Shown: in pieces, positions 2,365-40,182 of the stretch
Layout: each line of letters starts with the position of its first letter
Numbering within the stretch: position 1 is the first letter of the stretch
DNA from: an uncultured Candidatus Bathyarchaeia archaeon
GTDB lineage: Archaea > Thermoproteota > Bathyarchaeia > Bathyarchaeales > Bathyarchaeaceae
Assembly (NCBI GenBank): GCA_964618695.1
Contig: CAZUDX010000001.1
Span: 73,843 to 137,842, forward strand
Reading direction: 5' to 3'
Length of the DNA: 64,000 nt
The notes under the pieces: model-generated
Told to the model about the DNA's origin: nothing
Seen by the model: the letters and a program-made list of their open reading frames with translations, nothing else
Databases searched by the model: none
Translations under genes and position numbers: made by a program

Positions 2365-2742
2365 TTATTTCTTTGCTTCTTTCTTCTTTTGATAGTCTTT
2401 TATGGCTTCATGTAAGGCGTCTGCAGCAAGGTTGGAACAGTGCATCTTTATTGGAGGAAGACCCCCAAGATTCTTCGCCACATCAGCCCTAGTGATCTTC
2501 ATCGCTTCTTCAATGGTCTTCCCAATTGCAAGTTCAGTGGTCATGCTGCTAGTGGCTATGGCTGCGCCACAACCAAAAGTTTTGAACTTAACATCCACCA
2601 ACTTGTTGTCTTTAACTTTGATATACATCGTCATGAGATCTCCACAAACCGGATTACCAACGGTTCCAACACCGTCCGCGTCCGGAATCTCACCTACGTT
2701 TCGGGGATGCATGAAATGATCCATTACTTTCTCGCTATACAT
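2365..2742 (-). CDS. iscU: Fe-S cluster assembly scaffold IscU/NifU-like
   Basis: 125 aa. Carries the canonical motifs GNPVCGD, FKTFGCGAAIA and KMHCS. Confidence 0.9.
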   Translation of the reverse strand: MYSEKVMDHFMHPRNVGEIPDADGVGTVGNPVCGDLMTMYIKVKDNKLVDVKFKTFGCGAAIATSSMTTELAIGKTIEEAMKITRADVAKNLGGLPPIKMHCSNLAADALHEAIKDYQKKKEAKK

Positions 2743-2746
2743 TACA

Positions 2747-3922
2747 TCACCTCAAGATTTCCTTTGGGGTTAACGGTGAAAGCGCTCTCAACCTCTTCAC
2801 CACGTCCGGCAACACTTCTAGCACGTAATCCACGTCCTCCTCTGAGTTCTGTTTCCCCATGGTGAACACCAATGACCCGTGAGCCTCTTCGTGGGCTAAA
2901 CCTATGGCCAACAACACATGAGAGGGCTCCAAAGTTTTTGACGTGCACGCGGAACCCGAGGACACCTGAATTCCATACATATCCAGACCTAAAATGAGAG
3001 ACTCACCTTCTATATAACTGAACCTGAGATTGGCGTTGTTGGGAAGCCTTTCAACTGGGTGACCATTCAGAAAAGAATAATCAATCTTGTCCAAAACACC
3101 ATTAATCAGCTTATCCCTCAATCCAGTCAAACGTTTGCCTTCTTTTTTCAACTCTTTTTGGGCAATCTCAGCCGCCTTCGCTATACCAACTATGCCCGGA
3201 ATGTTTTCTGTGCCCGAACGTAATCCCCTCTCTTGACCTCCGCCTTGATTGATTGGCTGAATTTTTGTTCCCTTTCTGACGTAGAGGGCTCCCACACCTT
3301 TTGGTCCATACATGTCATTGGAAGAGAGAGACAAAAGGTCAATGTTTTCCTCTTGAACGTTGATTGGTACTTTTCCTGCTGCAGCCACGGCGTCCACATG
3401 AAAAATGATGTTGTTTTCGCGGGTGATCGTTCCAATCTCCTTTATCGGTTGAATTGTTCCAATTTCGCCATTAGCGTACATGATTGAGATTAGGATTGTT
3501 TGGTCGGTTATTGCGGCTTTGAGTTTTTCGAGGTCAACTACACCTTGTTTGTCCACAGGAACATAAGTTACTTCGAAGCCTTGCTTTTGGAGGTATTTGC
3601 AGATGTTTATCACGGACATATGTTCGATGGCAGTGGTGATTATGTGGTTTCCTTTCTTTTTGTTACGGTAGGCAACCCCTTTTATTGCCAGATTGTTGGA
3701 TTCGGTGCCTCCCGAAGTAAAGGTAATTTCTTGAGATTTCTCTGCCCCCACAAGCTGAGCAACCTTCTCTCTTGAATCCGCCAAAGCTTTTTTGGCGCTG
3801 TTTCCAAAAGAGTGGGAAGAAGAGGGGTTTCCGTAGTTCTCAATAAAATACGGTCTCATGGCTTCTAAGACCCTTGAATCTAGGGGCATTCCAGCTCCGT
3901 AGTCCATATACACTTTTTTCAA
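2747..3922 (-). CDS. iscS: IscS/NifS-family class V aminotransferase-fold protein lacking the PLP lysine (atypical cysteine desulfurase)
   Basis: 391 aa. Has the GGTESNN, HVDAV and SSGSACTS (catalytic Cys loop) motifs. The expected S-G-H-K-x-YGPKG reads S-S-N-D-M-YGPKG (codons AAT GAC at 3319..3314). Confidence 0.85.
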   Translation of the reverse strand: MKKVYMDYGAGMPLDSRVLEAMRPYFIENYGNPSSSHSFGNSAKKALADSREKVAQLVGAEKSQEITFTSGGTESNNLAIKGVAYRNKKKGNHIITTAIEHMSVINICKYLQKQGFEVTYVPVDKQGVVDLEKLKAAITDQTILISIMYANGEIGTIQPIKEIGTITRENNIIFHVDAVAAAGKVPINVQEENIDLLSLSSNDMYGPKGVGALYVRKGTKIQPINQGGGQERGLRSGTENIPGIVGIAKAAEIAQKELKKEGKRLTGLRDKLINGVLDKIDYSFLNGHPVERLPNNANLRFSYIEGESLILGLDMYGIQVSSGSACTSKTLEPSHVLLAIGLAHEEAHGSLVFTMGKQNSEEDVDYVLEVLPDVVKRLRALSPLTPKEILR

Positions 3923-3937: not shown

Positions 3938-4180
3938 CTATTCAACTTTCTTGATGATGAAATGCAACTGGTCATTTTCTTTACGCATTTTAAGTAGTTT
4001 AAGCCCAAGTCTCTTAACCAGCCGCGGTATGTCTTCCTCAGCAGCCGGATCGTCCGCAATTACCTCTAGAACTTGACCTGCCTCCAATTTGTCAATCTCT
4101 TGGCGGGTCCTGAAAACTGGTTCAGGACAGTAAAGACCTAAACAGTCAAGTTCTCTGTCAGGTTTAATCTGGTCACCCAA
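3938..4180 (-). CDS. tusA: TusA/SirA-like sulfur carrier protein
   Basis: 80 aa. Has the LGLYCPEPV (CPxP) motif with the conserved Cys. Non-ATG start. Lies 15 nt upstream of iscS on the same strand. Confidence 0.75.
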   Translation of the reverse strand: MGDQIKPDRELDCLGLYCPEPVFRTRQEIDKLEAGQVLEVIADDPAAEEDIPRLVKRLGLKLLKMRKENDQLHFIIKKVE

Positions 4181-4342
4181 CTACGAACCTCCAATAAACA
4201 GAAAGATTTCTTCATATAATTAAAATAGTTTCCCCCATATTTATCTATAACGGTGTTATAGATATGATCTTAACTACACTCAAAAAGAGCGCTTGGACGT
4301 CCTCGAGGTCCCCCAGCAGCATCTTTTCCATTTCTCCCTTTT

Positions 4343-25534: not shown

Positions 25535-26410
25535 CTATGAAATTTTTTCGAGAATCTTGTCGGTCTTCACCTTGTGGCTTCGAAGCGCTAGCTCTTTAGG
25601 GTCTACACCCAAGGCTAAGGCTAGAAGTTCTGAATAGTGAAGCACTGGTATGTCGTAGACTTCGTTGAACTTCGATTTCACTTGGATTTGCCCAATGTCC
25701 AAGGCGACAAAACAGAAAGGACAGAGAGTTCCGATGCAGTCAGCACCCGCCTTAGTTGTGTTTACGAGTTTGTCTCTAGCGAGACTAAGGGCAAGATCGT
25801 CATCATAACCCCTCAAAAGACCACCACAACACTTCAACTTGTTTCGATACTCAACGCTCTCCGCACCCAGAGCCTCAATGAGGTTTTCCAACATTTGGGG
25901 GCGCTCTGGATCGTCGAATTCTAGCAGTTCGCTTGGTCTGAGGGAGTGACAACCATAGAAGGGCGCCACTTTCAACTTATTCAAAGGCTTAACTACACTC
26001 TCTTTCAGAGATTCAAGTCCGATGTCATCCATCAAAACCTGAAGGAAATGTTTCACCTCTATAGTGCCCTGAAACTCCTTTCCAGCCTTAGACAGGATTC
26101 CATTTACTTTTTCTCTAAGTTTTTTGTCCTTCTTGAGAGCCGCGTTAGTCATGGCGAGCGACTCAAAACAGCCAGTACACAAAGTAACAATATCTAGACC
26201 TGCTTCTTCAGCTAAACAGATGTTGTAAGCAGCTACAGCCTGACTGGTTTCCAAATCTATAGATTGAATAGGTGGAGGACAACAACAAGTCATGTCGTCC
26301 AAGTCGACGAGCCCAATTCCTAGTTTCGTCAGAGCCTTTCTTGCCGACAATTCATAGTTTGGTTGACGCGCGGGTATGGTACATCCTAGAAACAGAGCAT
26401 AGCTTTTCAT
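25535..26410 (-). CDS. hdrB: Heterodisulfide reductase subunit B
   Basis: 291 aa. Two CCG-domain signatures (CCCPPP..., CCGG...). ATGA overlap with hdrC. Confidence 0.9.
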   Translation of the reverse strand: MKSYALFLGCTIPARQPNYELSARKALTKLGIGLVDLDDMTCCCPPPIQSIDLETSQAVAAYNICLAEEAGLDIVTLCTGCFESLAMTNAALKKDKKLREKVNGILSKAGKEFQGTIEVKHFLQVLMDDIGLESLKESVVKPLNKLKVAPFYGCHSLRPSELLEFDDPERPQMLENLIEALGAESVEYRNKLKCCGGLLRGYDDDLALSLARDKLVNTTKAGADCIGTLCPFCFVALDIGQIQVKSKFNEVYDIPVLHYSELLALALGVDPKELALRSHKVKTDKILEKIS

Positions 26411-26949
26411 TGTGACTCCTCCTTCTGTTGTAGCTTATCAAAACCCGTTGCAGACAGAATTTTGCGCAGCGCGTCTATTCCGGTTGGCTTAAGGGGTGGC
26501 AAACCGTAGGCTATTCTCTTCTTTTCCACGAATTTGGAGACTTGAACTATACGTCCATCGTTCATGAGAGCCGACGCGAACTCTGAGTATATGTTCGGGA
26601 TGTACCCCTCAGCTAATGCAATGTTTCTCAGGGCGTAAATCAAATCGGCTATCTCAACCTTCTGCGGACACCTTTCTTGGCAGTTGAAACATGAACAACA
26701 AAGCCATATAGCATCGCCGGAGACCACCTCTTCCTTCTCGCCTAGGAGAGAAAGCTTGATGACTTCTCTGGGATTGAAGTTGGGGGTGATCTTAGCTACT
26801 GGACAGCTGCTAGCGCACGTCCCACACTGATAACATAAGGTTAAAGTTTCGCCGCCATGACGACTTGTAACCTCATCTGAGAATGGCATCTTGGATTTTT
26901 CCACTTTTTGTGTCATTATACTTCCGCCTCTTTTCATCAGAAAACTCAC
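26407..26949 (-). CDS. hdrC: Heterodisulfide reductase subunit C
   Basis: 180 aa. Two 4Fe-4S motifs, CYQCGTCASSCP and CCSCFNCQERCP. The start is ambiguous: GTG 26949, or ATG 26937/26916. Confidence 0.85.
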   Translation of the reverse strand: MSFLMKRGGSIMTQKVEKSKMPFSDEVTSRHGGETLTLCYQCGTCASSCPVAKITPNFNPREVIKLSLLGEKEEVVSGDAIWLCCSCFNCQERCPQKVEIADLIYALRNIALAEGYIPNIYSEFASALMNDGRIVQVSKFVEKKRIAYGLPPLKPTGIDALRKILSATGFDKLQQKEESQ

Positions 26950-29369
26950 ATTAACTTCAGGGGACCCAGTTTAGTTAGCCGCTCGGTCATCATCTGGGCA
27001 GCCTCTGCAAACTGATCGCCTTCAATGAACACCATGTTGAATAACTCTAACCTTTCAGGCTCTATCCCATATTCTTTCAATAATACCTTGGCGAGATCCA
27101 TCTTCTTCTCAGCTTTCTGAATGCCAACTTCGTAGTGGCAACCGTCGCTCTTGCATCCCACCACCATCACTCCTTGGGCACCAGCCTTGAATGCCTCTAG
27201 AATCTGGTGAACTTGAAGTATTCCGGTGCATGGAACCTTCATAACCCTCACGTTGGCGGGATACTGCATTTTAGCCATCCCCGAGGAATCTACAGCTGTG
27301 TGACCACATTCTTGGCAGCAGATAGCTAATACCAGAGGCTTCGATGTTCCGTTCACCGACATAAGGGCTTTCATTTGGGCTAACATCTGGTTTGGTCTTG
27401 AGTGCCTAAGTTCGATGGCGTTCAGAGGACAGGTTCCCACGCAGATGCCACATCCCTCGCATATTATGTCATTAACACGAGCAACGAAGTGATCTTCGGT
27501 TGTGGGTTCTAAACTTATGGCGCCGTAGGGACAGGTGACGGGACAGAATTCACAATCACCACAGTAGTCCTCGTTGATTATTGCTGTTCTTTGATCCTTG
27601 ACAATTTTGCCGTTGGTCAAGAACTTTGCAGCCTTTATAGCTGCCGAATGAGCATGCAGAGAAGATGTCGGTGCATCCTTTGGAAAGGTTGTTCCTCCGC
27701 AGAGGTATACTCCCCTAAGCTTTGTTTCTGTTGGTCTAAGTTTGGCGTTGTATTCCTTGAAGAAACCGTCTGCGTCCAAATCAATACCCAGAATCTCGGC
27801 AAGCTCCTCGGTTCCTTCAGCTGGCACCATGGCAGGAGCCAAGACAACTAGGTCAGCTTCAAGGTCTAAGAATCTTTTGAGAAGGGCGTCCTCAACATCT
27901 ACGAATAATTTGCCTGTTTCCGTGTCCTTCCAGATTTCGGTGGGTCTCCCCTTAACGAACTTTATGCCCATCTCTCTGGCTCTTTCATAGTAGTACTCGT
28001 GTTCCCTTCCTGTGGTCCTTATGTCGATATAACAGATGGAAACATCTGCGTCAGGATTTGCAGATTTAATCAACGAGGCGTGCTTTAGGGAGATCATGCA
28101 ACAGATGCTTGAACACCAAGGATTATATCTCCTGTCTCGCGAACCAGCACATTGAATAAAAACGATTTTCTTAGCGGGCTTGCCGTCTGAAGGTTTAACA
28201 ATCACTCCGCCTGTGGGACCGAAACCGTCAATCATCCTAGCCAGTTCAAGATTGGTTATAACGTCAGGATAATCGTCATAATGGTATTCCTTTATGGCGC
28301 TGGAATCAAATTCTCGGAAGCCCGTGGCGACAACTATGCTCCCCACATTGAGAGTTATCTGCTCAGGTTTCTGATCCAGTTCAATGGCGTTTGTTGGACA
28401 AACTTCAACGCATTTGGCGCAATCATGGAACTTGCAGGCGCTTTCGTCAATGACGTAGACTGGCGGATGAACGTTGGGTACGTTCATGTAGATGGCTTTA
28501 CGGGTCTTCAGCTTTGCATTGTATTCATCAGGTACTTCCACTGGACAAACGGTGGTGCATTTGTCACATAGCACACAATTATCGTTAACGTATCGCGGTT
28601 TCTTCTCTATCGTAACCTTATAGTTTCCAGGAACTCCCTCAACACCAATAACCCTAGCGTTAGTTAAGATGTTCAAGTTTGGAATCTCGCTGAAACCAGA
28701 ACGATACACACACTTTCTGGATGTGTGGGTGATGGTCTTCAAGTCAGAGGACGGAGATTGGATACAAATTGCGCAGTCGTCAGTTGGGAAGAAACGACCA
28801 GCGCGGGCAGCCAAGCCACCGAGAAATGGTGTCTTCTCAACCAAGTTCACTTCGAAACCCAAATCCGCCAAGTCCCCAGCCGCCTGCATACCAGCGATTC
28901 CTCCACCTATAATCAAGGCGGATTTGAGGACTGGAAACTCGAGTTTTTCGACAGGTTCAAGAAGCTTGGCGCGTTCGATGGCTGATAGAAGCATGGCTTT
29001 AGCCTTTTCAGTGGCTTCCTTGGGGGTTTCCCGGTGGGGCCATGCGCAGTGGTCTTTTAGGTCGATTACTTCTACCAAGTAGGAATTGAGACCTGCTTTC
29101 TCAACCGCTTGTGCTATTTTTACTTCGCTTAGTTTAGGAAGGCTCTCAGCGACAACTACTCGATTTATTTTTCCGCTTTTAACGGCATCTAGAATGGTCT
29201 TTAATCCGTTGCCACGCCAGAACTCGCTGCCTCTGCCTATTAATACTACGTTTGAGACAGTTTTCACGAAGCTTGTTAGAGCGTTGAAGTCTAAGATTTC
29301 AGAGAGTTGATTGCCACAGTCAGATAGAAATACTCCGACTTTAGGTTGTTCCATTTTCCATTCGCTCAT
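26946..29369 (-). CDS. hdrA: Heterodisulfide reductase subunit A fused to a C-terminal MvhD domain
   Basis: 807 aa. FAD fold IIGGGIAGMQAA, FPTDDCAICI, several ferredoxin CxxCxxCxxxCP motifs, and a C-terminal MvhD-like LAICCQECG...PCTG...VVGCKSDGCHY. Confidence 0.9.
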   Translation of the reverse strand: MSEWKMEQPKVGVFLSDCGNQLSEILDFNALTSFVKTVSNVVLIGRGSEFWRGNGLKTILDAVKSGKINRVVVAESLPKLSEVKIAQAVEKAGLNSYLVEVIDLKDHCAWPHRETPKEATEKAKAMLLSAIERAKLLEPVEKLEFPVLKSALIIGGGIAGMQAAGDLADLGFEVNLVEKTPFLGGLAARAGRFFPTDDCAICIQSPSSDLKTITHTSRKCVYRSGFSEIPNLNILTNARVIGVEGVPGNYKVTIEKKPRYVNDNCVLCDKCTTVCPVEVPDEYNAKLKTRKAIYMNVPNVHPPVYVIDESACKFHDCAKCVEVCPTNAIELDQKPEQITLNVGSIVVATGFREFDSSAIKEYHYDDYPDVITNLELARMIDGFGPTGGVIVKPSDGKPAKKIVFIQCAGSRDRRYNPWCSSICCMISLKHASLIKSANPDADVSICYIDIRTTGREHEYYYERAREMGIKFVKGRPTEIWKDTETGKLFVDVEDALLKRFLDLEADLVVLAPAMVPAEGTEELAEILGIDLDADGFFKEYNAKLRPTETKLRGVYLCGGTTFPKDAPTSSLHAHSAAIKAAKFLTNGKIVKDQRTAIINEDYCGDCEFCPVTCPYGAISLEPTTEDHFVARVNDIICEGCGICVGTCPLNAIELRHSRPNQMLAQMKALMSVNGTSKPLVLAICCQECGHTAVDSSGMAKMQYPANVRVMKVPCTGILQVHQILEAFKAGAQGVMVVGCKSDGCHYEVGIQKAEKKMDLAKVLLKEYGIEPERLELFNMVFIEGDQFAEAAQMMTERLTKLGPLKLM

Positions 29370-30820
29370 CTTCTCAGTGTCTTTACTAATTGCTTGTCGC
29401 TGTCGAAGATGTTAACCTCTAAGGGCATCTCGCCTATTGCAAAGTGGGTGGCGCAGGCGAAGCATGGATCGTAAGCTCTGAAGGCCATCTCTACCTTGTT
29501 CAACAGACCATCGCTGACCTCACCGTTCTGTATAAGACCTTGCGCGGCGTTCTTTACGGACATGCAGATACTGGGAGCATTATGAGTTGTAGCCACTATT
29601 AAGTTGACTTTCTTCGCCAAAGCATTCTCATCTAACTGGTAATGGTGAATAAGAGTGCCTCTTGCAGCTTCAACTATCCCAACACCTTCGCCAGGCTTTC
29701 CAGGTTTGTTTCTAATGTTTTTGCTTGTAATGTCCTTGTCCGTAATCAGTTCTAATCCTCTTTCGGTTGCGTACATAAGTTCAATCAGCCTAGCCCAATG
29801 GAACGCTAAAGTAGCGTGAACTGGTTTTCCGCCAAGAGTTTTGTACATTCTCTCGTATTCTGCTTGGGCAACTGGTGTTGTCATTCCATCAGCGGCGTTA
29901 AGTCTTCCCAGTGGACCGACTCGGTATAGACTGGTTTCTGGTCCGCTAGTGAGACCTTTCCAACCAATTTTCTTCAAGTAAGGAAGTTTAACGTAAGTCC
30001 ACGGTTCAACATGCTCTTCTATAATGTCCAAATATTCTGTGGGACCAAATTTGACGAATTCTTTGCCCTGCGTATCGACTACACGGACTTTGCCGTCATA
30101 GAAGTTAACCTTGTTGTTCTTGTCTACGGTTCCCATGTAGTAGGTTTCCAAGTTGTAGGGGTCGCTTGTGATCAAGTTCACGTAGTCAGCATTTTTCAGG
30201 ACAATATCATCAAAGAGTTTCAGAGAGAACTTGGCAAACTCGTGACAACTTTTAAGCATATCTTCGATCTCTTGCCGTTCTTCCTCGTTTATTGCCTTTG
30301 CCATACCGCCTGGAAGAGCGCTTACCGGATGGGTTGGTCTTCCACCAAGAATTCCAGTGATCCTTTGTCCAAAAGCACGATGTTTTATGACTTCTCCAGC
30401 GACTTCCAAACCGGCTTTTTCTATTACTCCAAGAATGTTACGTTTAGCAGCGGGAGCGTCAGGTCCTACAACAAAGTCTGGACCGCCCAAGAAGTAGAAG
30501 TGCAGTATGTGGTCATAAATGAAATAACCGCAATACTCTATTTCTCTCAGTTTTTTCGCCGTTTCTGTCGGTTCAACATTCATTGCCATATCTGCAGCTT
30601 TTGCCCCTGCCATATGATGGGCAACTGGGCAGACTCCACAGATTCTGGTTGTTATTATGGGTAGGTCTTCAACCCTTCTTCCTTCGCAGAACCGTTCAAA
30701 GCCCCGCAGTTCGGGAACTTGGAAGTAAGCATTTTCAACGTTTCCAGCGTCATTTAGGAATATGGTTATTTTTCCGTGACCTTCCAGCCGTGTTATTGGA
30801 TCTATCACTATTTCTTTCAT
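29366..30820 (-). CDS. mvhA: [NiFe] hydrogenase large subunit, Mvh (group 3c)-type
   Basis: 484 aa. Has RLEGHG, the N-terminal Ni-Fe ligand motif RICGVCPVAH, the C-terminal DPCFACATH, and a cleavable extension. Confidence 0.9.
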   Translation of the reverse strand: MKEIVIDPITRLEGHGKITIFLNDAGNVENAYFQVPELRGFERFCEGRRVEDLPIITTRICGVCPVAHHMAGAKAADMAMNVEPTETAKKLREIEYCGYFIYDHILHFYFLGGPDFVVGPDAPAAKRNILGVIEKAGLEVAGEVIKHRAFGQRITGILGGRPTHPVSALPGGMAKAINEEERQEIEDMLKSCHEFAKFSLKLFDDIVLKNADYVNLITSDPYNLETYYMGTVDKNNKVNFYDGKVRVVDTQGKEFVKFGPTEYLDIIEEHVEPWTYVKLPYLKKIGWKGLTSGPETSLYRVGPLGRLNAADGMTTPVAQAEYERMYKTLGGKPVHATLAFHWARLIELMYATERGLELITDKDITSKNIRNKPGKPGEGVGIVEAARGTLIHHYQLDENALAKKVNLIVATTHNAPSICMSVKNAAQGLIQNGEVSDGLLNKVEMAFRAYDPCFACATHFAIGEMPLEVNIFDSDKQLVKTLRR

Positions 30821-31779
30821 TTCTTCACCTTCCTTCGGAGGATAGAGTGAGCTAACGAATACTTGTAGAAGGTTCCTATCGGATCCACAATGTCCTTAAC
30901 AACATCCGGATTTGTAGCAATGGAAGCAAGGGCACTAATAGCCGCAGCACCCTGATCGGTCACCCTAGGACCTGGACCGTTGCAGCCAGTGCATGGAATA
31001 TTAACTTTTGGGCATTGGGCGCCGCAACCTGCTCGGGTGGCTGGACCCATACAAATCACGCATTGGTCCAAGAAACATGTTTCTCCGTCATCATCAATCT
31101 CGTAGATTCTTTTTATCTGAGAGAGTTGTTTGTCCTTCTTCTCCCTTGGACACTCATCGCAGATGGATTTGTTTGGCAAGAAACTTGAACCCTTCGGAGG
31201 CAGATTGCCGGTTATAAATGCCATAAACATGTTGAGAATCGCCGGAATCGGCGGTGGACAACCAGAAATAGTGTAATCGACATCCACAGTTTGGGGTAGG
31301 GTTTTTACAGTGTCATAGAATTCTGGAAGTTCAAGCTCTCCTTCTTTGACTTTCAGATGTGTTTTAGGGGTCACATATTCTGGGTTTTGGGTCGATTGAG
31401 TCTCAGAATATGCTCTCTCGAAGATGGTTTTCCTGTCCCAAAGATTTGCGAGACCTTTGACACATCCGTCGTTGGCGCATGAGCCGAAGGCCACAAGTAT
31501 CTTTGATTTTTGTCTCAGGAGTTTTGCCATCTTCTCATTTTCTTCAGTTCTTATTGCGCCGTTGAAGAAGCAGGCGTCTATACTTTTGTCTGGCATAGCT
31601 TTGACATCTTTATATTTTATGTCCATGGCCACAGGCCAGAAGACGATGTCAGCAGCAGCAACGACGTCTAAGATTTTCTCGTTTACATCAAGAACAGCTA
31701 CTTCGCAGCCTCCACAACTAGCCGCCCAATAAAAAGCGATCTTAAGTTTCTCCTTTCCCACAGGAATCACCGTTTGCAA
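30817..31779 (-). CDS. mvhG: [NiFe] hydrogenase small subunit, Mvh-type
   Basis: 320 aa. SCGGCEV proximal-cluster motif and further Cys clusters (GSCA, CDEC, CxxCxGP...CTGC). The start may be GTG 31770 (leaderless) rather than TTG 31779. Confidence 0.85.
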   Translation of the reverse strand: MQTVIPVGKEKLKIAFYWAASCGGCEVAVLDVNEKILDVVAAADIVFWPVAMDIKYKDVKAMPDKSIDACFFNGAIRTEENEKMAKLLRQKSKILVAFGSCANDGCVKGLANLWDRKTIFERAYSETQSTQNPEYVTPKTHLKVKEGELELPEFYDTVKTLPQTVDVDYTISGCPPPIPAILNMFMAFITGNLPPKGSSFLPNKSICDECPREKKDKQLSQIKRIYEIDDDGETCFLDQCVICMGPATRAGCGAQCPKVNIPCTGCNGPGPRVTDQGAAAISALASIATNPDVVKDIVDPIGTFYKYSLAHSILRRKVKK

Positions 31780-31916: not shown

Positions 31917-33269
31917 TTAACGAAGTTTCCTTATCACCATTTCTGCAGCTAAAACCATCGGCTCCCACGTTTCGCAAACTGGAGGGGCATAGCATGTCTC
32001 GGCTTTCGCTAGTTCTTTGACAGTCATTTGGTTTTGTATAGCAAAGGACAGAGCGTTTACGCGCTGTGTTACTTCTTCTCCACCAATTATTTGAGCCCCA
32101 ACGAGTTTTCCTGTCTCCTTTTCTGCGACAAGCTTGATTCTGATTGGTAAGGCTCCTGGGAAGTAATCAGCCCTTGTTTTTGATTGTATTGTTCCTGCCA
32201 CAACTTCTATTCCTGCTCGACCAGCCATGAACTCTGTTAGTCCTGTGCCGCCGATTTCAGTGTCAAACAATCTTGTAATCCAAGAACCTAAGGCTCCTGA
32301 AAACGTGGTGTATCCGCCAGCAGCGTTGGTCCCCGCTACCTTTGCCTGTTTCACAGCAGTGGTTCCAAGCTGGCTCATTGTGGGTCTACACGTAACTAGG
32401 TTTATTGTTTCAGCGCAGTCTCCAGCTGCATAAATTCCTTTGATGTTAGTTTCCATTTTAGAGTTAGTTTTTATGCCCTTCTTTTCTCCCAGAGCTACGC
32501 CAGCGTTTTTTGCCAGTTCAGTATTTGCTCTTACCCCAGTGGCTACCACAACCACATCTGCCGAAATCTCTTCTCCAGCAACAAGAACTCCATTAACTTT
32601 GTCAGTTCCAAGGATTTCCTCTGCTCCTTTTCCAACAATAATTCTCATGCCTTTCTCTTCAAGCATCTTCTGAACGCGATCAGCCATATCCTTGTCCAGC
32701 AAGACAGGGAGAACATATGGAAGGAATTCAACGACTGTGGTTTTCAGTCCTCGTTCAAGGCAAGCTACGGCAACTTCAAGACCAATGAGTCCAGCGCCTA
32801 CAATGACGGCTGACTTTGCTGTCTCAAGGGCTTGGTTGATTTTTTCTCCGTCTTTAATGGTTCGGACAACGTACACGCCCTTCTTTTCTCGTCCCTTTAT
32901 CGGGGGCACAAAAGGAGCTGCGCCGGTGGTTATGACTAAACTGTCATACGGAAGAGTTTCTTTCTTTCCAGTTTTGTCTTGTATCTCGACAGTTTTTGCT
33001 TTAGTATCAATGTTTGTTACTGTTGTTTCAGTTTTCAGGTTTAGTTTCATCATTTTGTAGAATCTTTCAGGGAAGACCACTAGATCATCGAAGGTGGGTA
33101 TGTGTCCGCCCAAAACGAAGGGGAGACCGCAGCGGGAGTATGCTGTTTTGGCCTCTTTGGTTATTAGGGTGATTTCGGCGGTTCTATCGGTTTTTCGGGC
33201 AGCAGATGCCGCGTCAACACCTGCGGCGTGTGCTCCAATAATTATAATTTTTCGGGTCATTTTTATCAC
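31917..33269 (-). CDS. FAD-dependent pyridine nucleotide-disulfide oxidoreductase, NADH oxidase / CoA-disulfide reductase family
   Basis: 450 aa. GxHAAG FAD fold, a single redox Cys in YSRCGLP, a second dinucleotide fold VGAGLIGLE, and AAGDCA. Confidence 0.8.
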   Translation of the reverse strand: MIKMTRKIIIIGAHAAGVDAASAARKTDRTAEITLITKEAKTAYSRCGLPFVLGGHIPTFDDLVVFPERFYKMMKLNLKTETTVTNIDTKAKTVEIQDKTGKKETLPYDSLVITTGAAPFVPPIKGREKKGVYVVRTIKDGEKINQALETAKSAVIVGAGLIGLEVAVACLERGLKTTVVEFLPYVLPVLLDKDMADRVQKMLEEKGMRIIVGKGAEEILGTDKVNGVLVAGEEISADVVVVATGVRANTELAKNAGVALGEKKGIKTNSKMETNIKGIYAAGDCAETINLVTCRPTMSQLGTTAVKQAKVAGTNAAGGYTTFSGALGSWITRLFDTEIGGTGLTEFMAGRAGIEVVAGTIQSKTRADYFPGALPIRIKLVAEKETGKLVGAQIIGGEEVTQRVNALSFAIQNQMTVKELAKAETCYAPPVCETWEPMVLAAEMVIRKLR

Positions 33270-33365
33270 TCATTTTTTGGTTGTCAAATTATCAACTGGT
33301 TTTTATCATATTAAGCTTATTCATAGAAAGATGGATACTCGGATTAGGACTATATTAGAGACGCT

Positions 33366-33560
33366 TTAGCTTTGTTCTTTTACAAGTGAGTAAAGGCGAC
33401 TCTTGTTATCGCAGTCGATTGTGCCTTCACTGAAGAGTTTCCGTAAAGCTTTGAAGATTGCTTTCTCTGATTTTCCGATTTTTTCCGCGATTTCAACTAG
33501 ACTGAGAGCTTTTCCTGAGGTTTCTAACAGTGAGATTATTTGTTTATGGATTTTGCCCAT
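33366..33560 (-). CDS. Small winged-helix DNA-binding protein
   Basis: 64 aa. LSLVEIAEKIGKSEKAIFKALRKL HTH-like segment. Confidence 0.45.
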   Translation of the reverse strand: MGKIHKQIISLLETSGKALSLVEIAEKIGKSEKAIFKALRKLFSEGTIDCDNKSRLYSLVKEQS

Positions 33561-33620
33561 TATGGATTCCAGCCTGTTTGTTGGTATCTTATCTGTATGT
33601 TCTTAGATAAATTATCTTTT

Positions 33621-33653
33621 GTTAAAAAAATAGGAGTGTTTAAACAAACTCCT
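33621..33653 (-). terminator. Hairpin plus oligo-U terminator after gcvH
   Basis: The minus strand reads AGGAGT-TTGTTTAAAC-ACTCCT, followed by A and T7. Confidence 0.45.
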
Positions 33654-33709
33654 CCTAAGAGGCTCATTGTTGTTCTTGGAAAGCATCTAGGCACTTGTTT
33701 GTGACTGGT

Positions 33710-34126
33710 TTAACCTTCTTTTGCGACTTTTTTATGCCATTCTACAGCTGCTTCGAAGTTCATGATTGCTTTCAAGTCTGCATCTAGATTTGATGGGGCT
33801 ACGGTTACTACCCATCCCTCGCCATAGGGGTCTTCGTTTAACAGTTCAGGTTTGGACTCAAGCTCTTCGTTCACCGATTCAATTGTACCGCTTACAGGGG
33901 CAACGAGGTCTGAGACTGCTTTCACGGATTCTAAGGTTCCGAAAGGCTCGTTTTGAGTTATAGTGTCACCGACACCAGGAAGTTCAACAAAGACGATGTC
34001 ATGGAGTTGTTTTTGGGCGTAGTCAGAGATGCCGATTCTAACTTTTCCGTTTTCTACTTTTGCCCACAGGTATTCCTTGTGGTAATATAGACCTTCTGGT
34101 ACTTCGTAGTCTTCTACTTTGACCAT
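33710..34126 (-). CDS. gcvH: Glycine cleavage system H protein / lipoyl-carrier protein
   Basis: 138 aa. Canonical lipoyl-lysine motif LESVKAVSDLVAPVSG. Confidence 0.9.
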   Translation of the reverse strand: MVKVEDYEVPEGLYYHKEYLWAKVENGKVRIGISDYAQKQLHDIVFVELPGVGDTITQNEPFGTLESVKAVSDLVAPVSGTIESVNEELESKPELLNEDPYGEGWVVTVAPSNLDADLKAIMNFEAAVEWHKKVAKEG

Positions 34127-34268
34127 ATTTTACACCTCTATCAGATACGGTATTGTGATACCTGTTTATCTTAAAAATGTAACTATCCCATTTTTTATTT
34201 CGCTATTTATGAAAAACTGCGCATCCGCGTTTTACGTTTATTAGAGTGGTTGAATGAATTGTGACTGA

Positions 34269-35348
34269 ATGCGTATGAGGATATTAGCTTTAGACATTGG
34301 AGCAGGAACCGAAGACATTCTGCTATTCGACGACAATAAAGGCAGTTTGGAAAATTGCGTCAAGATGGTTTTGCCTTCACCCAGCAAGATTTACGCCTCA
34401 AAAGTTAAAGAAGCAACCAATCGTCGCCAAGACATTTTCTTGACAGGAGATATTATTGGGGGAGGGCTACTATCGAAAGCGATACGGAACCATCTTCAAG
34501 AAGGTCTCAAGGTATTTGCGAAAGAGAAAACAGCTTTCACAATAAGAAATGATCTGAATGAAGTCAGAGAGTTAGGAATCGAAATTATCCCTGAAAACCA
34601 AGAACCAAAAAATTTTGACGGAATAAAACTACGACTAGAGGAAGTTAACCTTCAGAAACTGGAGAAATTCCTACAAGAATTTAACGAGTCGTTAGTTGGG
34701 GTAGATTTTGTGGCGATTGCTGTTCAGGATCACGGTATTTCTAATCAGGGAATGAGTAATAGACAGTCTCGCATCCAAAACATGAAGGCGCTCTTAAAGA
34801 AGGAGCCTTTGCCTGAAAAACTTGCTTTCAAAGAAGACGAGATTCCTCCATTCTTTTTGAGGATGCAGTCAGCAGTGCAAGCGTCTAAGAGGCAGCTTCC
34901 TGAAGCTCAGGTTTTGTTGATGGATACCGCGCCAGCGGCTTTGTTGGGATGCTTAAAGGACCCGGTGGTTGAAGAAAAAGATCAGGTGATTGCAGTAAAT
35001 ATTGGAAACGGTCACACAATGGGTGCAATAATTTCAAAGGGTAAAATTCAAGGTTTGATGGAGCATCACACTTGTTTGCTTGATCCCAAGAAACTTGAAC
35101 AGCTCGTGGTCGGATTTGCTGATGGAGATGTTACGAACGAAGATGTGTTCAGGGAGGGTGGTCATGGACTATTTTATTTAACAGAGCCTCCGGGATTTTC
35201 ACAGATTGATGTGGTTGCGGTTACTGGTCCTAACAGAAAAATGGCAACAACAACAAAGTTTTCCAGTTATTTTGCGGTCCCCGGCGGAGATATGATGATG
35301 ACTGGACCAATCGGTCTCATCGAAGCAACAAACAGACTGTATTTGTGA
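34269..35348 (+). CDS. ASKHA (actin/sugar kinase/Hsp70)-fold protein, DUF1786-like
   Basis: 359 aa. Phosphate-1-like ILALDIGAGTED and NIGNGHT motifs. Function unknown. Confidence 0.5.
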   Translation: MRMRILALDIGAGTEDILLFDDNKGSLENCVKMVLPSPSKIYASKVKEATNRRQDIFLTGDIIGGGLLSKAIRNHLQEGLKVFAKEKTAFTIRNDLNEVRELGIEIIPENQEPKNFDGIKLRLEEVNLQKLEKFLQEFNESLVGVDFVAIAVQDHGISNQGMSNRQSRIQNMKALLKKEPLPEKLAFKEDEIPPFFLRMQSAVQASKRQLPEAQVLLMDTAPAALLGCLKDPVVEEKDQVIAVNIGNGHTMGAIISKGKIQGLMEHHTCLLDPKKLEQLVVGFADGDVTNEDVFREGGHGLFYLTEPPGFSQIDVVAVTGPNRKMATTTKFSSYFAVPGGDMMMTGPIGLIEATNRLYL

Positions 35349-35430
35349 GCAGCTGATGTGTTTTAGTCAAGGTTTCTTGACAAAAATGCTTTTCAAATTC
35401 CTTGACGAATGATTTTTTGGTGCCCAACGA

Positions 35431-37254
35431 GTGAAAAAAAGTGGGACAACTCTAATTGTATTACTCGTTATTTCTTCCTTATTGGTAATTCTTTCCAACA
35501 TTGAGACTGTTACGGCAGAACCTAGAACAATTGTTGTTCCTGACGATTATTCCACGATTCAAGAGGCAATTGATGGAGCTTCTGAAGGCGACACCGTGTT
35601 TGTGAAGAATGGAATCTACATCGAAAGCGTCACAATTGACAAAGCCTTGGCGCTTGAGGGCGAGAACAAAGAATCAACAGTAATCGACGGAAACAACACT
35701 GGACCAACCATTCTCATACGCCACGACGGAGTCAACGTTACAGGCTTCAAAATAAGAAATGTCGAAGACCCCCCGCCGTTTTCTGATTCACGCGGAAGAC
35801 TTGCAGGAATCCATCTGCTGGATGTTCGTCACTGCAGAATATATGGAAACAATGTGGTAAACTGTGGCAAAGGAGTATGGCTTCACGGGTCATCAGACAA
35901 CAACATAATTACAAACAGTTTTTCAGGCAACAACTACGGTGTCCTCTTAGAGTCATCCAACAACAACATCATCACTGTAAACACGATTTCAGATGGTTGG
36001 GGCGGCATCTGGATTGAAAACTCCGAAAACAACATGCTTAGAGACAACAACATGCTAAATAACGTCCAAAACTTCGGAATCTTAGGCTCTGAGATTTCAC
36101 ACTACAACAATGATGTTGATCTGTCAAACCTGATCAACAGCAACAGAGTATATCGTGTTATTGACGAAACAAACCTGATCATTGATCCCTCTTCCTTTCC
36201 AGATGTTGGCTATTTGCTCGTAATAAACTGCACAGGCATAACAGTTCAAAGCTTGCAAGTAACCAACAACTATGTAGGAATACATTTAGTGGGTTCACCT
36301 AACTGCACACTAACTCAAAACGTTGTATCAAATAACACGTGCGGAATATGGGTTCAACTCTCTCAGGACTGCGTTATTTCCGAGAATGAAGTTGAATCAA
36401 ATAGTGATTGGGGAATCCGAGTTGACAAGTCGGATAACAGCCACATATCCCACAATTATATGGAATATAATCAATTGAATGGGATCGTGATCACTGGTTC
36501 GGATAACAATTTGATAGTTGAAAATAATATAGCACATGGCTTCGACGGTTCTGAGGGATTCAATGGTATCAGTCTACTTTCATCTAGCAATAACCAGATT
36601 GTCGGAAATTCGATATTAGGGAATGAAAATTGTGCTGGAATAAATCTCAAGGATTCTTCAAATAACTTAGTGAAAAGAAATCTAGTCGATCCTGGTGCTC
36701 TAGGAATAAACATTCGAGAAGAGTCCAACTACAATGAAATTTTGGAGAATACTTTACTAACTGACATGGGTAGTTGGGGAATTGTTCTGTTTAGTTCATT
36801 TAATGTGTTGACTGGAAACAACGTTACAAACTTTTACACGGGCATTAAGCTTTCCGGCGAAAACAACACTGTTACGCAGAACATTTTTTACAGTAAGGAG
36901 CGTGCAATTGAAGTTTTTCCGGAAAGCAACAACAACACATTCATTATGAACAACTTTCAGGGGGGGACAGAAATTTTCGATTTCAGTCAAGTCTGGCAGG
37001 AACTCCCAGTGAATATTTGGGACGACGGAGAAAAAGGCAATTACTGGGAGAACTATAAAGGAATAGATAATAACGGTGATGGAACAGGAGATACTCCATA
37101 CATCATAAACGAGAAAAACCAAGACAACCATCCACTCATGGAGCCAGTCATAATCCCAGAGTTCCCACCATGGATACTTTTGCCACTGTTTTTGATTGCC
37201 ACACTGTTTGCGTTGGTTATAAAAAAGAAACTCTCGACTCAACTTCTCCAATAA
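35431..37254 (+). CDS. Secreted right-handed parallel beta-helix (NosD/pectate-lyase-like) repeat protein with PEF-CTERM anchor
   Basis: 607 aa with a signal peptide. More than 15 N-x-I-x-x-N-type beta-helix turns and many NxS/T sequons. The C-terminus is PEFPPW + TM + KKK. Confidence 0.75.
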   Translation: MKKSGTTLIVLLVISSLLVILSNIETVTAEPRTIVVPDDYSTIQEAIDGASEGDTVFVKNGIYIESVTIDKALALEGENKESTVIDGNNTGPTILIRHDGVNVTGFKIRNVEDPPPFSDSRGRLAGIHLLDVRHCRIYGNNVVNCGKGVWLHGSSDNNIITNSFSGNNYGVLLESSNNNIITVNTISDGWGGIWIENSENNMLRDNNMLNNVQNFGILGSEISHYNNDVDLSNLINSNRVYRVIDETNLIIDPSSFPDVGYLLVINCTGITVQSLQVTNNYVGIHLVGSPNCTLTQNVVSNNTCGIWVQLSQDCVISENEVESNSDWGIRVDKSDNSHISHNYMEYNQLNGIVITGSDNNLIVENNIAHGFDGSEGFNGISLLSSSNNQIVGNSILGNENCAGINLKDSSNNLVKRNLVDPGALGINIREESNYNEILENTLLTDMGSWGIVLFSSFNVLTGNNVTNFYTGIKLSGENNTVTQNIFYSKERAIEVFPESNNNTFIMNNFQGGTEIFDFSQVWQELPVNIWDDGEKGNYWENYKGIDNNGDGTGDTPYIINEKNQDNHPLMEPVIIPEFPPWILLPLFLIATLFALVIKKKLSTQLLQ

Positions 37255-37329
37255 TAAAACAATCCAGCTTCATTGGGAGCCGAAAATATCTTATGCTAAT
37301 TAAATAGTCAAAATTTGAGGTTGCTTAGG

Positions 37330-37722
37330 ATGTTTGAGCCGGTTGAAGAGGCAAACGCGTTAGATTGGAAAGAGACAATATTGAAAGCAAAGAAGCTTGT
37401 TGTTGTGGAGTTTTGGTCTCCATACTGTCCTCATTGCCAAGCAATCAAACCAGTTTACGACGAACTTGCATTAGAATACGGAGACAAACTGAAATTCACC
37501 AAACTCAATGTCATGGATAGCCCCGAAAACCAAAAACTTGCAGCAAAACATGGCATAATGGGAACACCAACATTCCTGTTCTTCTGCGGAGGAAGACCAG
37601 TCAACGGTGTTGTTGGAGCATTAGCAAAAGAAGACCTTACACAAGCAATAGAGTTCACAATCCAAAAACACGAAGATTGCTCAAAGAAAAGCACACCTCT
37701 AAGTCTGCCCTACATTAGCTGA
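37330..37722 (+). CDS. Thioredoxin
   Basis: Start set at ATG 37330, 8 nt after GAGGT. Has a WSPYCPHC active site and a Trx fold (GTPTFLFF). Confidence 0.85.
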   Translation: MFEPVEEANALDWKETILKAKKLVVVEFWSPYCPHCQAIKPVYDELALEYGDKLKFTKLNVMDSPENQKLAAKHGIMGTPTFLFFCGGRPVNGVVGALAKEDLTQAIEFTIQKHEDCSKKSTPLSLPYIS

Positions 37723-37836
37723 TTAACTAAACACGTGTTCAGGTTTGATTATACAAGTATTCGTTGTTGCTTCTATGTGACACTCCGTTTGTTTCAAGTC
37801 AAAACGCAACGGTTCTTCTGGACAACAGAACAGTGA

Positions 37837-38877
37837 ATGTCGGCAGTAAATGATAACATATTTGAGGGTACATTTGCTAGTGAGTTTGGATATCAGATGA
37901 AAGTTGAGGAAATTTGGCGCGTTTCTGGAGAAGAATTGGCTTCAATGATTGAAAAGGGACTTTTCCGAAACAATCAGAGAAGAATTCGGTTTTACGCTCC
38001 AAGTTTCATGAACTACAAAACCAGCTACTATTGCTCATCTAAAACTTTTTTTCCATCGATTTCAATCACAGGGTCTTCATGTGCTCTGAAATGCAAACAT
38101 TGCGACGGAAAGGTTCTCAACACTATGTATCCAGTTTCTACTCCAAACGAACTTTTTGAGTTATGCAAGAAATTGAAGGCTAAAGGAGCAGTGGGATGTC
38201 TCATAAGTGGAGGGTGCCTTCCTGATGGTTCTGTTCCCCTTGACAATTTCGTAGACGCCATAGCCAAAGTGAAAAAAGAGTTGGGATTAACCATTGCAAC
38301 CCATACTGGAGTCATAGAGTTGTCCACTGCGAAGAGGCTGAAGGAGGCAGGTGTTGACGCTGCGCTACTTGACATAATTGGTTCCAATCAAACCATACAA
38401 GAGATATACCGACTGAAAATCACTGTTGAAGACTACGATAGGTCTTTGAAGGCTTTGCACAAATCAGGTATTCCTTTCGTTCCTCACTTGCTTGTTGGGC
38501 TTCACTATGGCGAACTGAAGGGTGAACTTCAAGCCCTAAAGATTATTTCTAATCACTCACCCTCAGCGATTATTTTGATAGCTTTCATGCCGATTCATGG
38601 AACACCCATGGAAAAAGTTGTCCCCCCAAGTCCCGAAGACATTGCCAAAGTGCTGGTTACAACTAAACTGCTGATGCCCAATACGCCTGTTGCCTTAGGA
38701 TGCATGAGACCGAAGGGAAAACACAGAACAAAAACAGATACTTTGGCTGTGAAAGCTGGAGTCAACGCCATCGCCTTTCCAGACGAAGAAGCAATAAAGC
38801 TAGCAGAATCGTTAGGTCTAGAGATTTCGTTTTCGCCCATCTGCTGCTCCCAAATCTTCAAAGACCTAATATCATGA
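37837..38877 (+). CDS. Radical SAM protein, biotin-synthase-homolog type; candidate lipoyl synthase component LipS2
   Basis: 346 aa. CALKCKHC (CX3CX2C) preceded by FPSISITG, then GGC.PDG. The pattern matches my memory of the COG1856-type LipS2 family; not verified. Confidence 0.55.
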   Translation: MSAVNDNIFEGTFASEFGYQMKVEEIWRVSGEELASMIEKGLFRNNQRRIRFYAPSFMNYKTSYYCSSKTFFPSISITGSSCALKCKHCDGKVLNTMYPVSTPNELFELCKKLKAKGAVGCLISGGCLPDGSVPLDNFVDAIAKVKKELGLTIATHTGVIELSTAKRLKEAGVDAALLDIIGSNQTIQEIYRLKITVEDYDRSLKALHKSGIPFVPHLLVGLHYGELKGELQALKIISNHSPSAIILIAFMPIHGTPMEKVVPPSPEDIAKVLVTTKLLMPNTPVALGCMRPKGKHRTKTDTLAVKAGVNAIAFPDEEAIKLAESLGLEISFSPICCSQIFKDLIS

Positions 38878-39015
38878 TTCTAGGCAATAGGCAGACGTCT
38901 TTGCAGACATAACAGTTACGTTTTTGTTCGCCAACATACATTTCCAGAAACTATTTGAAGGGCGATTCCAATCACAATTTTTCTGTGTTTCCTTCAAGCA
39001 AACGGAGATTTGTTA

Positions 39016-39360
39016 ATGTCAACTCACCCTCGAATGGTTAGAGAGAGAAAAACAATTGAAGCCATGGTAAAAATTTACTGCCATAACCATCATGAAAGCG
39101 ATGGAGAACTTTGTCAGGAATGCAATGAACTGTTTGAATATGCAATGATGCGACTAGATAAATGTCCCTACCAAGAAAAGAAAACAACCTGCGCCAAATG
39201 CCCAATACATTGCTACAAACCAGAAATGAGAACAAAAGTAAGGGAAGTGATGAAGCATTCAGGACCTCGCATGCTATTCAAGCATCCAATCTTAGCGATA
39301 AAACATCTTTTAGACGGGCGCAAGAAACCAGAAAAACCCAAAAAACGACAAGCCTCCTGA
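39016..39360 (+). CDS. Cys/His-rich YgbA-like (nitrous-oxide-stimulated-promoter family) protein
   Basis: ATG 39016 lies 8 nt after GGAG. Motif string REKKTIEAMVKIYCHNHH...CQEC...CPY...CAKCPIHCYKP. Confidence 0.6.
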   Translation: MSTHPRMVRERKTIEAMVKIYCHNHHESDGELCQECNELFEYAMMRLDKCPYQEKKTTCAKCPIHCYKPEMRTKVREVMKHSGPRMLFKHPILAIKHLLDGRKKPEKPKKRQAS

Positions 39361-39399
39361 GCGCGTAATTTTTATTTCGCTTTCAACTAACAACTAAAC

Positions 39400-40182
39400 A
39401 TGTCAGTGAACGTGGACGCAGAGTCCATCAACCTTAAGGCTCGAACTCGAAAGAAAGTAAAAGAGACAGTTGCTATTGAGGAGCCGTCAAACATCTATTT
39501 GAATGGTGAATATTTGGTCACTCTTTTGTCAACTCCAACAATGAGAAAGGAACTCGCCATTGGTTGGCTCTTAAGCGAAGGCATTATTCACTCTTTCTCG
39601 GAAATAGAAAACATCACAGTTTCAGAAAGTGAAATAGAAGTCGACATAAACCGTTCTTTTGACAGAAAAGATTTGAACATTTTTGGCGTAACCAGACTCT
39701 ACACAACCGCTTGCGGATTATCCACTGCAAAATTCAACCAAGTGATATCCACCAAAGAAACCCAGATGATACAGTCTGATTACCAAGTTAAAGCAAGCCA
39801 ACTCCTGCAAATGATGGAGGAACTGGAAAATAGAGCCGTTTTTTTCCAGACAACTGGAGGAACACATGTGTCAGCCCTGTTTCACAAAGGCAGACTTGTG
39901 GCGTTAGCTGAGGATGTTGGACGTCATAATAGTGTTGATAAAGTGATTGGAAGTGGGGCTCGGTCTGGAATAGAATTTTCTGAGTGTGTTCTCGCTAGTT
40001 CAGGTAGACAACCCGCAGACATGGTGTTGAAAGCTGCAAGAACAGGCATTCCGATAATTGTGTCAAAAGCCGCTCCGATACGTTCAGGGATAATAGCCGC
40101 AGAAAATTGGGGCGTGACGCTTGTCTGTTTTGCCAGAAAAAACAGGATGAACGTGTATACCCATTCCTTTAGAATACAGTAA
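39400..40182 (+). CDS. fdhD: FdhD-family sulfurtransferase-like protein
   Basis: 260 aa. Motifs TTGGTHVSAL and EDVGRHNSVDKVIG. The Cys loop reads TTACGLS, i.e. a single Cys. Confidence 0.85.
   Translation: MSVNVDAESINLKARTRKKVKETVAIEEPSNIYLNGEYLVTLLSTPTMRKELAIGWLLSEGIIHSFSEIENITVSESEIEVDINRSFDRKDLNIFGVTRLYTTACGLSTAKFNQVISTKETQMIQSDYQVKASQLLQMMEELENRAVFFQTTGGTHVSALFHKGRLVALAEDVGRHNSVDKVIGSGARSGIEFSECVLASSGRQPADMVLKAARTGIPIIVSKAAPIRSGIIAAENWGVTLVCFARKNRMNVYTHSFRIQ

Follow-up and report, generated by a model that had tools for sequence, protein, structure and literature searches.

A lysine-less IscS homolog encoded between tusA and iscU in a Bathyarchaeial genome, and candidate persulfide carriers beside genes of its kind

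The IscS protein of Archaeoglobus fulgidus has Asp199 in place of the lysine that forms the Schiff base with pyridoxal phosphate (PLP) in cysteine desulfurases, for that reason has no desulfurase activity, and forms a complex with the scaffold protein IscU in which an IscS cysteine ligates a [2Fe-2S] cluster (PMC7585200, PMC8918507). It has been found with non-covalently bound pyridoxamine phosphate (PMP), PLP has been modelled in the IscS-IscU(D35A) complex, and a D199K variant still contains PMP, not Lys-bound PLP; a 2022 review continues to list the sulfur source of the IscS-IscU pair as an open question (PMC8918507). Another archaeal protein, IscS1 of Methanosarcina acetivorans (MA0808), is Lys-less too, insoluble on its own and uncharacterised, its gene being clustered with four genes of unassigned function. 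Here we describe a relative of the A. fulgidus protein from an uncultured Candidatus Bathyarchaeia archaeon, encoded on the minus strand of a stretch of 64,000 nucleotides (contig CAZUDX010000001.1, positions 73,843 to 137,842) that we call the window and in whose own numbering all positions are given. The gene lies between genes for a TusA-like sulfur carrier and an IscU scaffold. The account that we favour, with rather more confidence than doubt, is that its product is a dead type I desulfurase homolog, an ortholog-level relative of A. fulgidus IscS2 that would be co-transcribed with TusA and IscU and fed with sulfur by a persulfide carrier.

The open reading frame (ORF) at 2747..3922 (minus strand) encodes a Lys-less type I cysteine-desulfurase homolog, IscS or MisS, of 391 residues, whose translation includes DLLSLSSNDMYGPKGVGALYVR and the loop motif SSGSACTS. 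It covers the class V aminotransferase fold at full length (Pfam Aminotran_5, PF00266, 4e-80), scores 559 bits against the NCBIfam NifS model TIGR03402 (cut-off 530.75), and matches IscS, NFS1 and NifS entries in the PDB with E < 1e-90. The best PDB match is A. fulgidus IscS2 (4EB5/4EB7/4HVK, E = 4e-146), which carries the motif SSNDIYGPKG, and the next is its D199K variant (4R5F). Read on the minus strand, in the context ...tct tcc AAT GAC atg tat gga cca aaa ggt..., the codons AAT (3319..3317) and GAC (3316..3314) encode Asn202-Asp203. In a MAFFT alignment, for which the E. coli IscS sequence was drawn from NC_000913.3, these two residues (3314..3319, minus strand) fall on His205 and the Schiff-base lysine Lys206 of E. 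coli IscS and on Asn198 and Asp199 of A. fulgidus IscS2, and a HMMER alignment to the sequence of the 4EB5/4HVK crystal structures is gap-free across the Asn-Asp motif. The register of the alignment is validated because the aligned Asp199 is the residue that the literature numbers as the Lys-replacing Asp of A. fulgidus IscS (PMC8918507), and the alignment is already fixed because a crystal structure exists for this 58%-identical ortholog with the same motif.

The initial annotation had read Asn-Asp for His-Lys at 3319..3314 next to a retained SSGSACTS loop and had proposed the comparison with E. coli and A. fulgidus IscS. The minus-strand reading and both alignments, which place Asp203 in the Lys206 column with no gap relative to the structure sequence, bear out the replacement, and the ORF translation bears out the loop. 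The annotation was also right about the same Lys-to-Asp change in A. fulgidus IscS (Asp199, in an SSND motif). What it stated further of that protein holds for the most part: the lack of desulfurase activity and the IscS-IscU complex stand, but the protein is not cofactor-free, non-covalent PMP having been found and PLP modelled. The start of the window gene is ambiguous (3907..3922, minus strand): a TTG at 3922 gives a protein of 391 residues beginning MKKVYMDY, the start form of many homologs, and the NCBI record begins at an ATG at 3907 to give 386 residues. An exact-sequence look-up of this NCBI-form protein (P0001, 386 residues) returned no record, and an 84%-identical ortholog (P0081) supplied the context.

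Type I cysteine desulfurases carry their Schiff-base lysine (K206) in the motif S-x-H-K, and the window protein has Asp203 at this position. In the E. coli enzyme, Gln183 contacts O3' of PLP, Asn155 is a substrate and cofactor contact, Arg354 binds the carboxylate of the substrate cysteine, and His205 neighbours Lys206. All four are lost from the window IscS, in which Gln183 is replaced by Ala180 (3383..3385, minus strand), His205 by Asn202, Asn155 by Gly152, and Arg354 by Val352 (2867..2869, minus strand). In 184 Lys-containing homologs, conservation at these four columns is 91-99%; Gln is found at position 183 in 97% of Lys-containing but 6% of Lys-less homologs, and Arg at position 354 in 99% and 14%, respectively. 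Across 220 homologs, the columns that best discriminate the two groups are E. coli positions 206, 183, 354, 12/13, 106, 205 and 155, which, as judged from the alignment, together make up the cysteine/PLP site and are the signature of a pseudoenzyme. The contacts to the ring and phosphate of the cofactor are retained (Thr73, His101, Asp177, Ser200 and Thr238, equivalent to E. coli T76, H104, D180, S203 and T243). So is the cysteine of the mobile loop SSGSACTS (residues 321-328; 2939..2962, minus strand), where Cys326 (codon 2947..2945) corresponds to E. coli Cys328 and A. fulgidus Cys321; a loop cysteine is present in every Lys-less sequence examined. Since the lysine, its neighbouring histidine, Gln183, Asn155 and Arg354 are all replaced, PLP-dependent cleavage of cysteine is not expected of this protein.

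The degenerate site is shared by close relatives. Among the 120 closest database homologs of the window protein (83-100% identity), the named ones of which are mostly labelled Bathyarchaeota, 119 have Asn-Asp (ND) and one has SD, and SSGSACTS is present in all. The 120 sequences closest to A. fulgidus IscS2 likewise have ND, with the single exception of the engineered D199K protein (NK). Relative to the locus of the 84%-identical ortholog (L001), the ratio of nonsynonymous to synonymous substitution rates (dN/dS) is 0.09 for iscS, 0.15 for tusA and 0.03 for iscU. Because the homologs are uniformly without the lysine and dN/dS is 0.09, the sequences identify the window IscS as a maintained pseudoenzyme under strong purifying selection, not a decaying gene.

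The operon has the gene order tusA-iscS-iscU, with all three genes on the minus strand and spacers of 15 nt from the tusA stop to the iscS start and 4 nt from the iscS stop to the iscU start. The first gene (3938..4180, minus strand) encodes a TusA-like sulfur-carrier protein of 80 residues (PF01206, 87.8 bits, cut-off 28.6) with the active-site motif LDCLGLYCPEPV, in which the cysteine of CPxP (YCPEPV) is joined by a second cysteine five residues upstream. Its score against the NCBIfam TusA equivalog model NF001423 is 69.8 bits, below the cut-off of 78; by these profile scores it is a member of the TusA family that fails as an equivalog of E. coli TusA, the protein of the tRNA 2-thiouridine relay. 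The second cysteine (DCxGLxCP) is common to most TusA proteins of the ND clade described below and is missing from the neighbours in Nitrospirota, Saganbacteria and Promethearchaeota (L008); E. coli TusA presumably has no second cysteine before CPxP.

The third gene (2365..2742, minus strand) encodes an IscU/MisU scaffold of 125 residues (Pfam NifU_N, 1e-50; TIGR03419, 210.9 bits, cut-off 187.9). Its cluster ligands, three Cys, an Asp and a His, are all present in the motifs NPVCGD, FGCGAAIA and KMHCS, and its score against the SufU model TIGR01994 is under the cut-off of that model. The protein also has an LPPIK motif (2440..2454, minus strand), a variant of the HscA-binding LPPVK, yet the operon is without an HscA or HscB gene; the same puzzle has been remarked for M. 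acetivorans. Upstream of tusA is an AT-rich intergenic region of 162 nt (4181..4342, minus strand) with a putative TATA-like stretch at ~4224..4214 and a GGAGG at 4192..4188, 7 nt ahead of the TTG start of tusA, so that this region is likely to hold the operon promoter and ribosome-binding site. The tusA-iscS-iscU triad recurs amid different flanking genes in another Bathyarchaeota genome (L001). A Pfam scan of ORFs of at least 120 residues across the 64-kb window found no second desulfurase and no SufBC/SmsBC scaffold.

Loss of the lysine recurs in the wider family, since in an alignment of 158 sequences, for which 150 representatives of 50%-identity clusters were aligned, the lysine is present in 136 and absent from 22. 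We compared the surroundings of Lys-less and Lys-containing genes in 80 loci from species-representative genomes and three contexts that we picked ourselves, classing each IscS by alignment to E. coli IscS and seeking TusA, DsrE-family and IscU genes in the flanks by phmmer and hidden Markov models. The sample held 18 Lys-less and 67 Lys-containing genes. A gene for TusA, a DsrE-family protein or both lies within 1.5 kb of 16 of the 18 Lys-less genes but of none of the 67 Lys-containing genes (Fisher p = 2e-15), and the carriers of Lys-less genes are in nearly all cases their immediate neighbours, encoded on the same strand. K206, C328 and R354 are canonical in all 67 Lys-containing genes, as are N155, Q183 and H205 apart from one Q183I and one H205Q. 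A closer negative control, consisting of 80 metagenome loci related to the canonical Lys-containing MisS of Bathyarchaeota, yielded 83 Lys-containing genes, again with no TusA or DsrE gene nearby.

A third Lys-less lineage is found in Clostridia, where the lysine is changed to threonine (HT in 115 of 120 members, HN in four, QI in one). Carriers were predicted for the clostridial loci before these were looked up, and both loci (L088, L089) read TusA-DsrE-IscS-IscU. Overall, carriers lie beside 20 of 23 Lys-less genes and 0 of 150 Lys-containing genes (p = 2e-23), and counting each lineage once leaves 12 of 15 Lys-less lineages with carriers (p = 8e-16). The carrier-linked loci are L001, L004, L006, L008, L015, L019, L026, L042, L051, L052, L057, L077, L084, L086-L090 and L092. 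Around the Lys-less gene the order is DsrE-IscS2-IscU in A. fulgidus (L084), TusA-IscS-IscU in Ferroglobus (L086), and TusA-DsrE-IscS-IscU in a 'Thaumarchaeota' metagenome-assembled genome (MAG; L087) and in Hadesarchaea (L090); in Geoglobus (L092) it is SepCysS-like-DUF169-ThiI-TusA-IscS-IscU, and a more distant Bathyarchaeia genome (L091) has IscS-IscU only. The carrier cysteines are conserved: the CPxP cysteine is present in 13 of 13 TusA neighbours, and the DsrE-family cysteine (VC[ED]/ACT) in all neighbours of that family. A search of the accessible literature, which several key papers fall outside, found no described link between TusA or DsrE and Lys-less IscS, and the linkage is apparently undescribed.

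Several of these loci have features of their own. The Geoglobus acetivorans cluster (CP087714.1; L092, 482-5612), whose SepCysS-like PLP enzyme has a GSGHK motif and is without the Cys loop, groups several sulfur-inserting functions with a dead IscS. IscU partners of Lys-less proteins are frequently larger than usual. The clostridial ones (L088, 6178-6813; L089, 6179-6817) are fusions of NifU_N to FeS_assembly_P (DUF59-type) of ~212 residues, which is the reported size of M. acetivorans IscU1, and the IscU-partner ORFs of Asgard archaea and Actinomycetota have ~260-270 residues (L006, 3457-4236; L008, 5183-5980; L015, 5159-5968). In a Rokuibacteriota MAG (L053, 2208-3497), the lysine is replaced by leucine, Q183, H205 and R354 are retained, and carriers are absent nearby; this gene, which may have been inactivated recently or may reflect an assembly error, provides an internal contrast to the degenerate clades.

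We placed the Lys-less proteins in a neighbour-joining tree (distance method only) computed with the signature columns removed and 100 bootstraps. An ND clade of 10 loci, among them A. fulgidus IscS2 and the window IscS, is recovered in 97 of 100 replicates and includes Bathyarchaeia, Archaeoglobi, the 'Thaumarchaeota' MAG, Thor- and Promethearchaeota, and Actinomycetota. An xQ clade of Actinomycetota, Saganbacteria, Dehalococcoidia and Nitrospirota has a bootstrap of 84. A single origin of all Lys-less proteins is unsupported, as ND and xQ are jointly monophyletic in 12 of 100 bootstraps. Because these two clades, well recovered one by one, are unreliable as sisters, the tree indicates that Lys-less IscS comprises at least two or three lineages (ND, xQ and HT).

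These comparisons suggest how the window operon could work. By analogy with the crystallographic and biochemical work on A. fulgidus, the window IscS would dimerise and dock IscU as (IscS-IscU)2, may retain PMP or PLP as a structural cofactor bound non-covalently, and would extend Cys326 to the assembly site of IscU, as in 4EB5, where this residue would serve as a ligand or a relay. From gene context, the co-encoded TusA would bring sulfane sulfur, a task that would fall in other lineages to TusA together with a DsrE-family protein or to DsrE alone, and the carrier would hand persulfide to Cys326 or straight to IscU, substituting for the cysteine-cleavage step. We infer, as the best reading of the data, that the sulfur for IscU is not released from cysteine but arrives on a persulfide carrier or as sulfide. 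The initial annotation had likewise pointed to sulfide or a carrier in place of cysteine, and the suggestion is strengthened by the loss of Arg354 and Gln183, by the TusA gene 15 nt upstream, and by the general linkage of Lys-less IscS to TusA and DsrE carriers.

Lys-less genes occur in Bathyarchaeia, Archaeoglobi, Hadesarchaea, Asgard archaea, Actinomycetota, Nitrospirota, Dehalococcoidia, Saganbacteria and Clostridia. Extended to all of these, the same idea becomes more tentative, and we would put it at somewhat short of an even chance: Lys-less IscS/MisS could be the core of a widespread and so far undescribed form of the minimal ISC/MIS system in which a TusA/DsrE persulfide relay takes the place of cysteine cleavage and feeds the loop cysteine and IscU, the lysine having disappeared on at least two or three occasions, always together with carriers.

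Several points weigh against a carrier-fed pathway. Sulfur flow in E. coli runs from IscS to TusA, and gene adjacency gives no direction of flow. A persulfide route in sulfidic anoxia needs an oxidant or another source of sulfane sulfur, and none was identified in the window. The absence of an active desulfurase applies to the 64 kb scanned. The loss of activity has been demonstrated for the A. fulgidus ortholog only. The loci that we sampled are phylogenetically non-independent, and three of them were our own choice. Carrier genes are missing from the surroundings of three Lys-less loci, namely L091 (Bathyarchaeia), L065 (Dehalococcoidia) and L053 (Rokubacteria). Finally, the published proposal for the sulfur source of A. 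fulgidus IscS is free sulfide, for which a carrier is unneeded (PMC8918507).

This proposal forms the basis of the main rival explanation, in which the dead IscS-IscU pair takes sulfide directly, IscS does no more than stabilise IscU and lend it a Cys ligand, and TusA serves tRNA thiolation or the molybdenum cofactor or removes sulfur from the complex. Such an arrangement would explain the three Lys-less loci without carriers, and the window has other sulfur users, namely FdhD (39400..40182) and a PP-loop ATPase (48092..49042). Bathyarchaeia live in anoxic, often sulfidic sediments. According to a 2026 review, sulfide can serve the MIS and SMS systems, and free sulfide is also what has been hypothesised for A. 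fulgidus IscS (PMC8918507). We nevertheless regard uptake of free sulfide as unlikely, if worth serious consideration, because it leaves unexplained why TusA or DsrE genes stand beside Lys-less IscS in three lineages and beside 0 of 150 active-type genes, and why the loop cysteine is invariant.

The triad might instead be a sulfur-relay hub for thio-cofactor synthesis or tRNA thiolation, with the IscU-like protein acting as a SufU-like sulfur acceptor outside Fe-S assembly. The ThiI and SepCysS-like genes directly upstream of TusA-IscS-IscU in Geoglobus fit such a role, and SufU is thought to descend from MisU-like scaffolds (PMC13066941). The window IscU, however, has the full set of cluster ligands, passes the TIGR03419 cut-off and stays under that of the SufU model TIGR01994, and the A. 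fulgidus complex binds a [2Fe-2S] cluster, all of which make this explanation improbable.

We consider it very improbable that the window protein is an active cysteine desulfurase working through another lysine or with non-covalent PLP. Its T73, H101, D177, S200 and T238 would still contact PLP, and PLP has been modelled in the A. fulgidus IscS-IscU(D35A) complex (PMC8918507). Against this, Gln183, His205, Asn155 and Arg354 are gone besides the lysine, no gap interrupts the alignment of the motif with the crystal-structure sequence, A. fulgidus IscS is inactive, and its D199K variant holds PMP, not Lys-bound PLP (PMC8918507). Takeover by another lysine is rejected because the rest of the catalytic site is lost too. 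A pseudogene, or an assembly or sequencing error, for which nothing speaks beyond the loss of catalytic residues themselves, can be dismissed in view of the intact ORF, a dN/dS of 0.09, the tight operon coupling, and the conservation of ND in ~240 sequences of 58-100% identity from many samples.

Elsewhere in the window are other genes related to sulfur and redox metabolism. A heterodisulfide reductase/hydrogenase cluster (25535..31779, minus strand) encodes an HdrB-like CCG protein, an HdrC-like ferredoxin, the large and small subunits of a NiFe hydrogenase, and an 807-residue HdrA-like protein fused to an MvhD (FlpD) domain. Lipoate- and sulfur-related genes at 31917..41234 and 46616..47413 encode a dihydrolipoamide-dehydrogenase-like flavoprotein, a GcvH-type lipoyl carrier (33710..34126), a DUF1786 protein, a thioredoxin, an LplA/B-type ligase, and the FdhD sulfurtransferase (39400..40182), which has a radical SAM gene on either side; as a group they resemble lipoate assembly sets that include radical SAM lipoyl synthases. 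The PP-loop ATPase at 48092..49042 (minus strand; ATP_bind_3, with a weak tRNA_Me_trans match) is possibly a tRNA thiolation enzyme of the TtuA/Ncs6 type, in which case it too would consume activated sulfur close to the dead IscS. Two proteins of 822 and 910 residues with PQQ-like beta-propeller repeats (50219..52687 and 53097..55829, both minus strand) and a 607-residue NosD/beta-helix protein (35431..37254, plus strand) are probably surface proteins; a NosD-type gene is also found near the operon in L001 and L091.

Taken by itself, the Asn-Asp replacement is a Bathyarchaeial instance of an A. fulgidus feature that has been known for more than 10 years. The degeneration of the whole cysteine-binding site marks a pseudoenzyme as opposed to a point variant, and the Lys-less family to which it belongs is large, extends over both prokaryotic domains, is under strong selection, and is tightly linked to TusA and DsrE. 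This linkage provides a concrete, testable candidate for the sulfur donor that is missing from many uncultured anaerobes, among them Asgard archaea and Bathyarchaeia, which are important for carbon cycling in sediments. The relay, if true, would also answer how the A. fulgidus IscS-IscU pair gets its sulfur.

Pairs of TusA and DsrE-family carriers are familiar from the relays of sulfur oxidisers, such as Rhd-TusA-DsrE2/DsrEFH-DsrC of Allochromatium vinosum and DsrE3A-TusA of Metallosphaera cuprina. Like the Lys-less loci, these systems set the same two carrier families side by side with their active cysteines conserved, but they serve dissimilatory sulfur oxidation through DsrC and Hdr-like complexes, whereas the Lys-less loci belong to anaerobes and pair the carriers with an Fe-S scaffold. 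The E. coli IscS-TusA complex (PDB 3LVJ) also resembles the window operon in combining a TusA-family protein with a CPxP cysteine and a type I IscS fold with a mobile Cys loop. It differs in that E. coli IscS is active and passes the persulfide that it makes to TusA, and in that the two genes are non-adjacent; because the window IscS is not expected to make persulfide from cysteine, sulfur flow there would be reversed or would start elsewhere.

The archaeal MIS (minimal iron-sulfur) system MisS-MisU, as in M. acetivorans IscS2-IscU2, shares with the window operon an iscS-iscU core of two genes that lacks HscAB, ferredoxin and IscA, and its IscU also has the LPPIK motif. M. acetivorans IscS2, unlike the window protein, has the lysine, binds PLP and is active, and MIS is described in the 2026 review as carrier-free, whereas the window operon includes a TusA gene. 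A. fulgidus IscS2 (AF0564) is closer still. It is 58% identical to the window IscS over the full length, belongs to the same ND clade, and shares SSND[IM]YGPKG, the change of Gln183 to Ala, the loss of Arg354, the Cys loop, and an iscU gene directly downstream. It differs in retaining Asn155, which is Gly in the window protein, and in having a DsrE-family gene (AE000782.1; L084, 5707-5991) and not tusA immediately upstream; an A. fulgidus TusA gene lies ~6 kb from IscS2, beside a gene for a pyridine-nucleotide disulfide oxidoreductase. In the reviews of the in vitro work on A. fulgidus IscS-IscU that we consulted, neither the adjacent DsrE-family protein nor TusA is mentioned. With the motif, the clade, the adjacent iscU and the retained cofactor contacts all fitting, the sequence evidence identifies the window IscS as a presumably inactive desulfurase paralog of the A. 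fulgidus IscS2 type.

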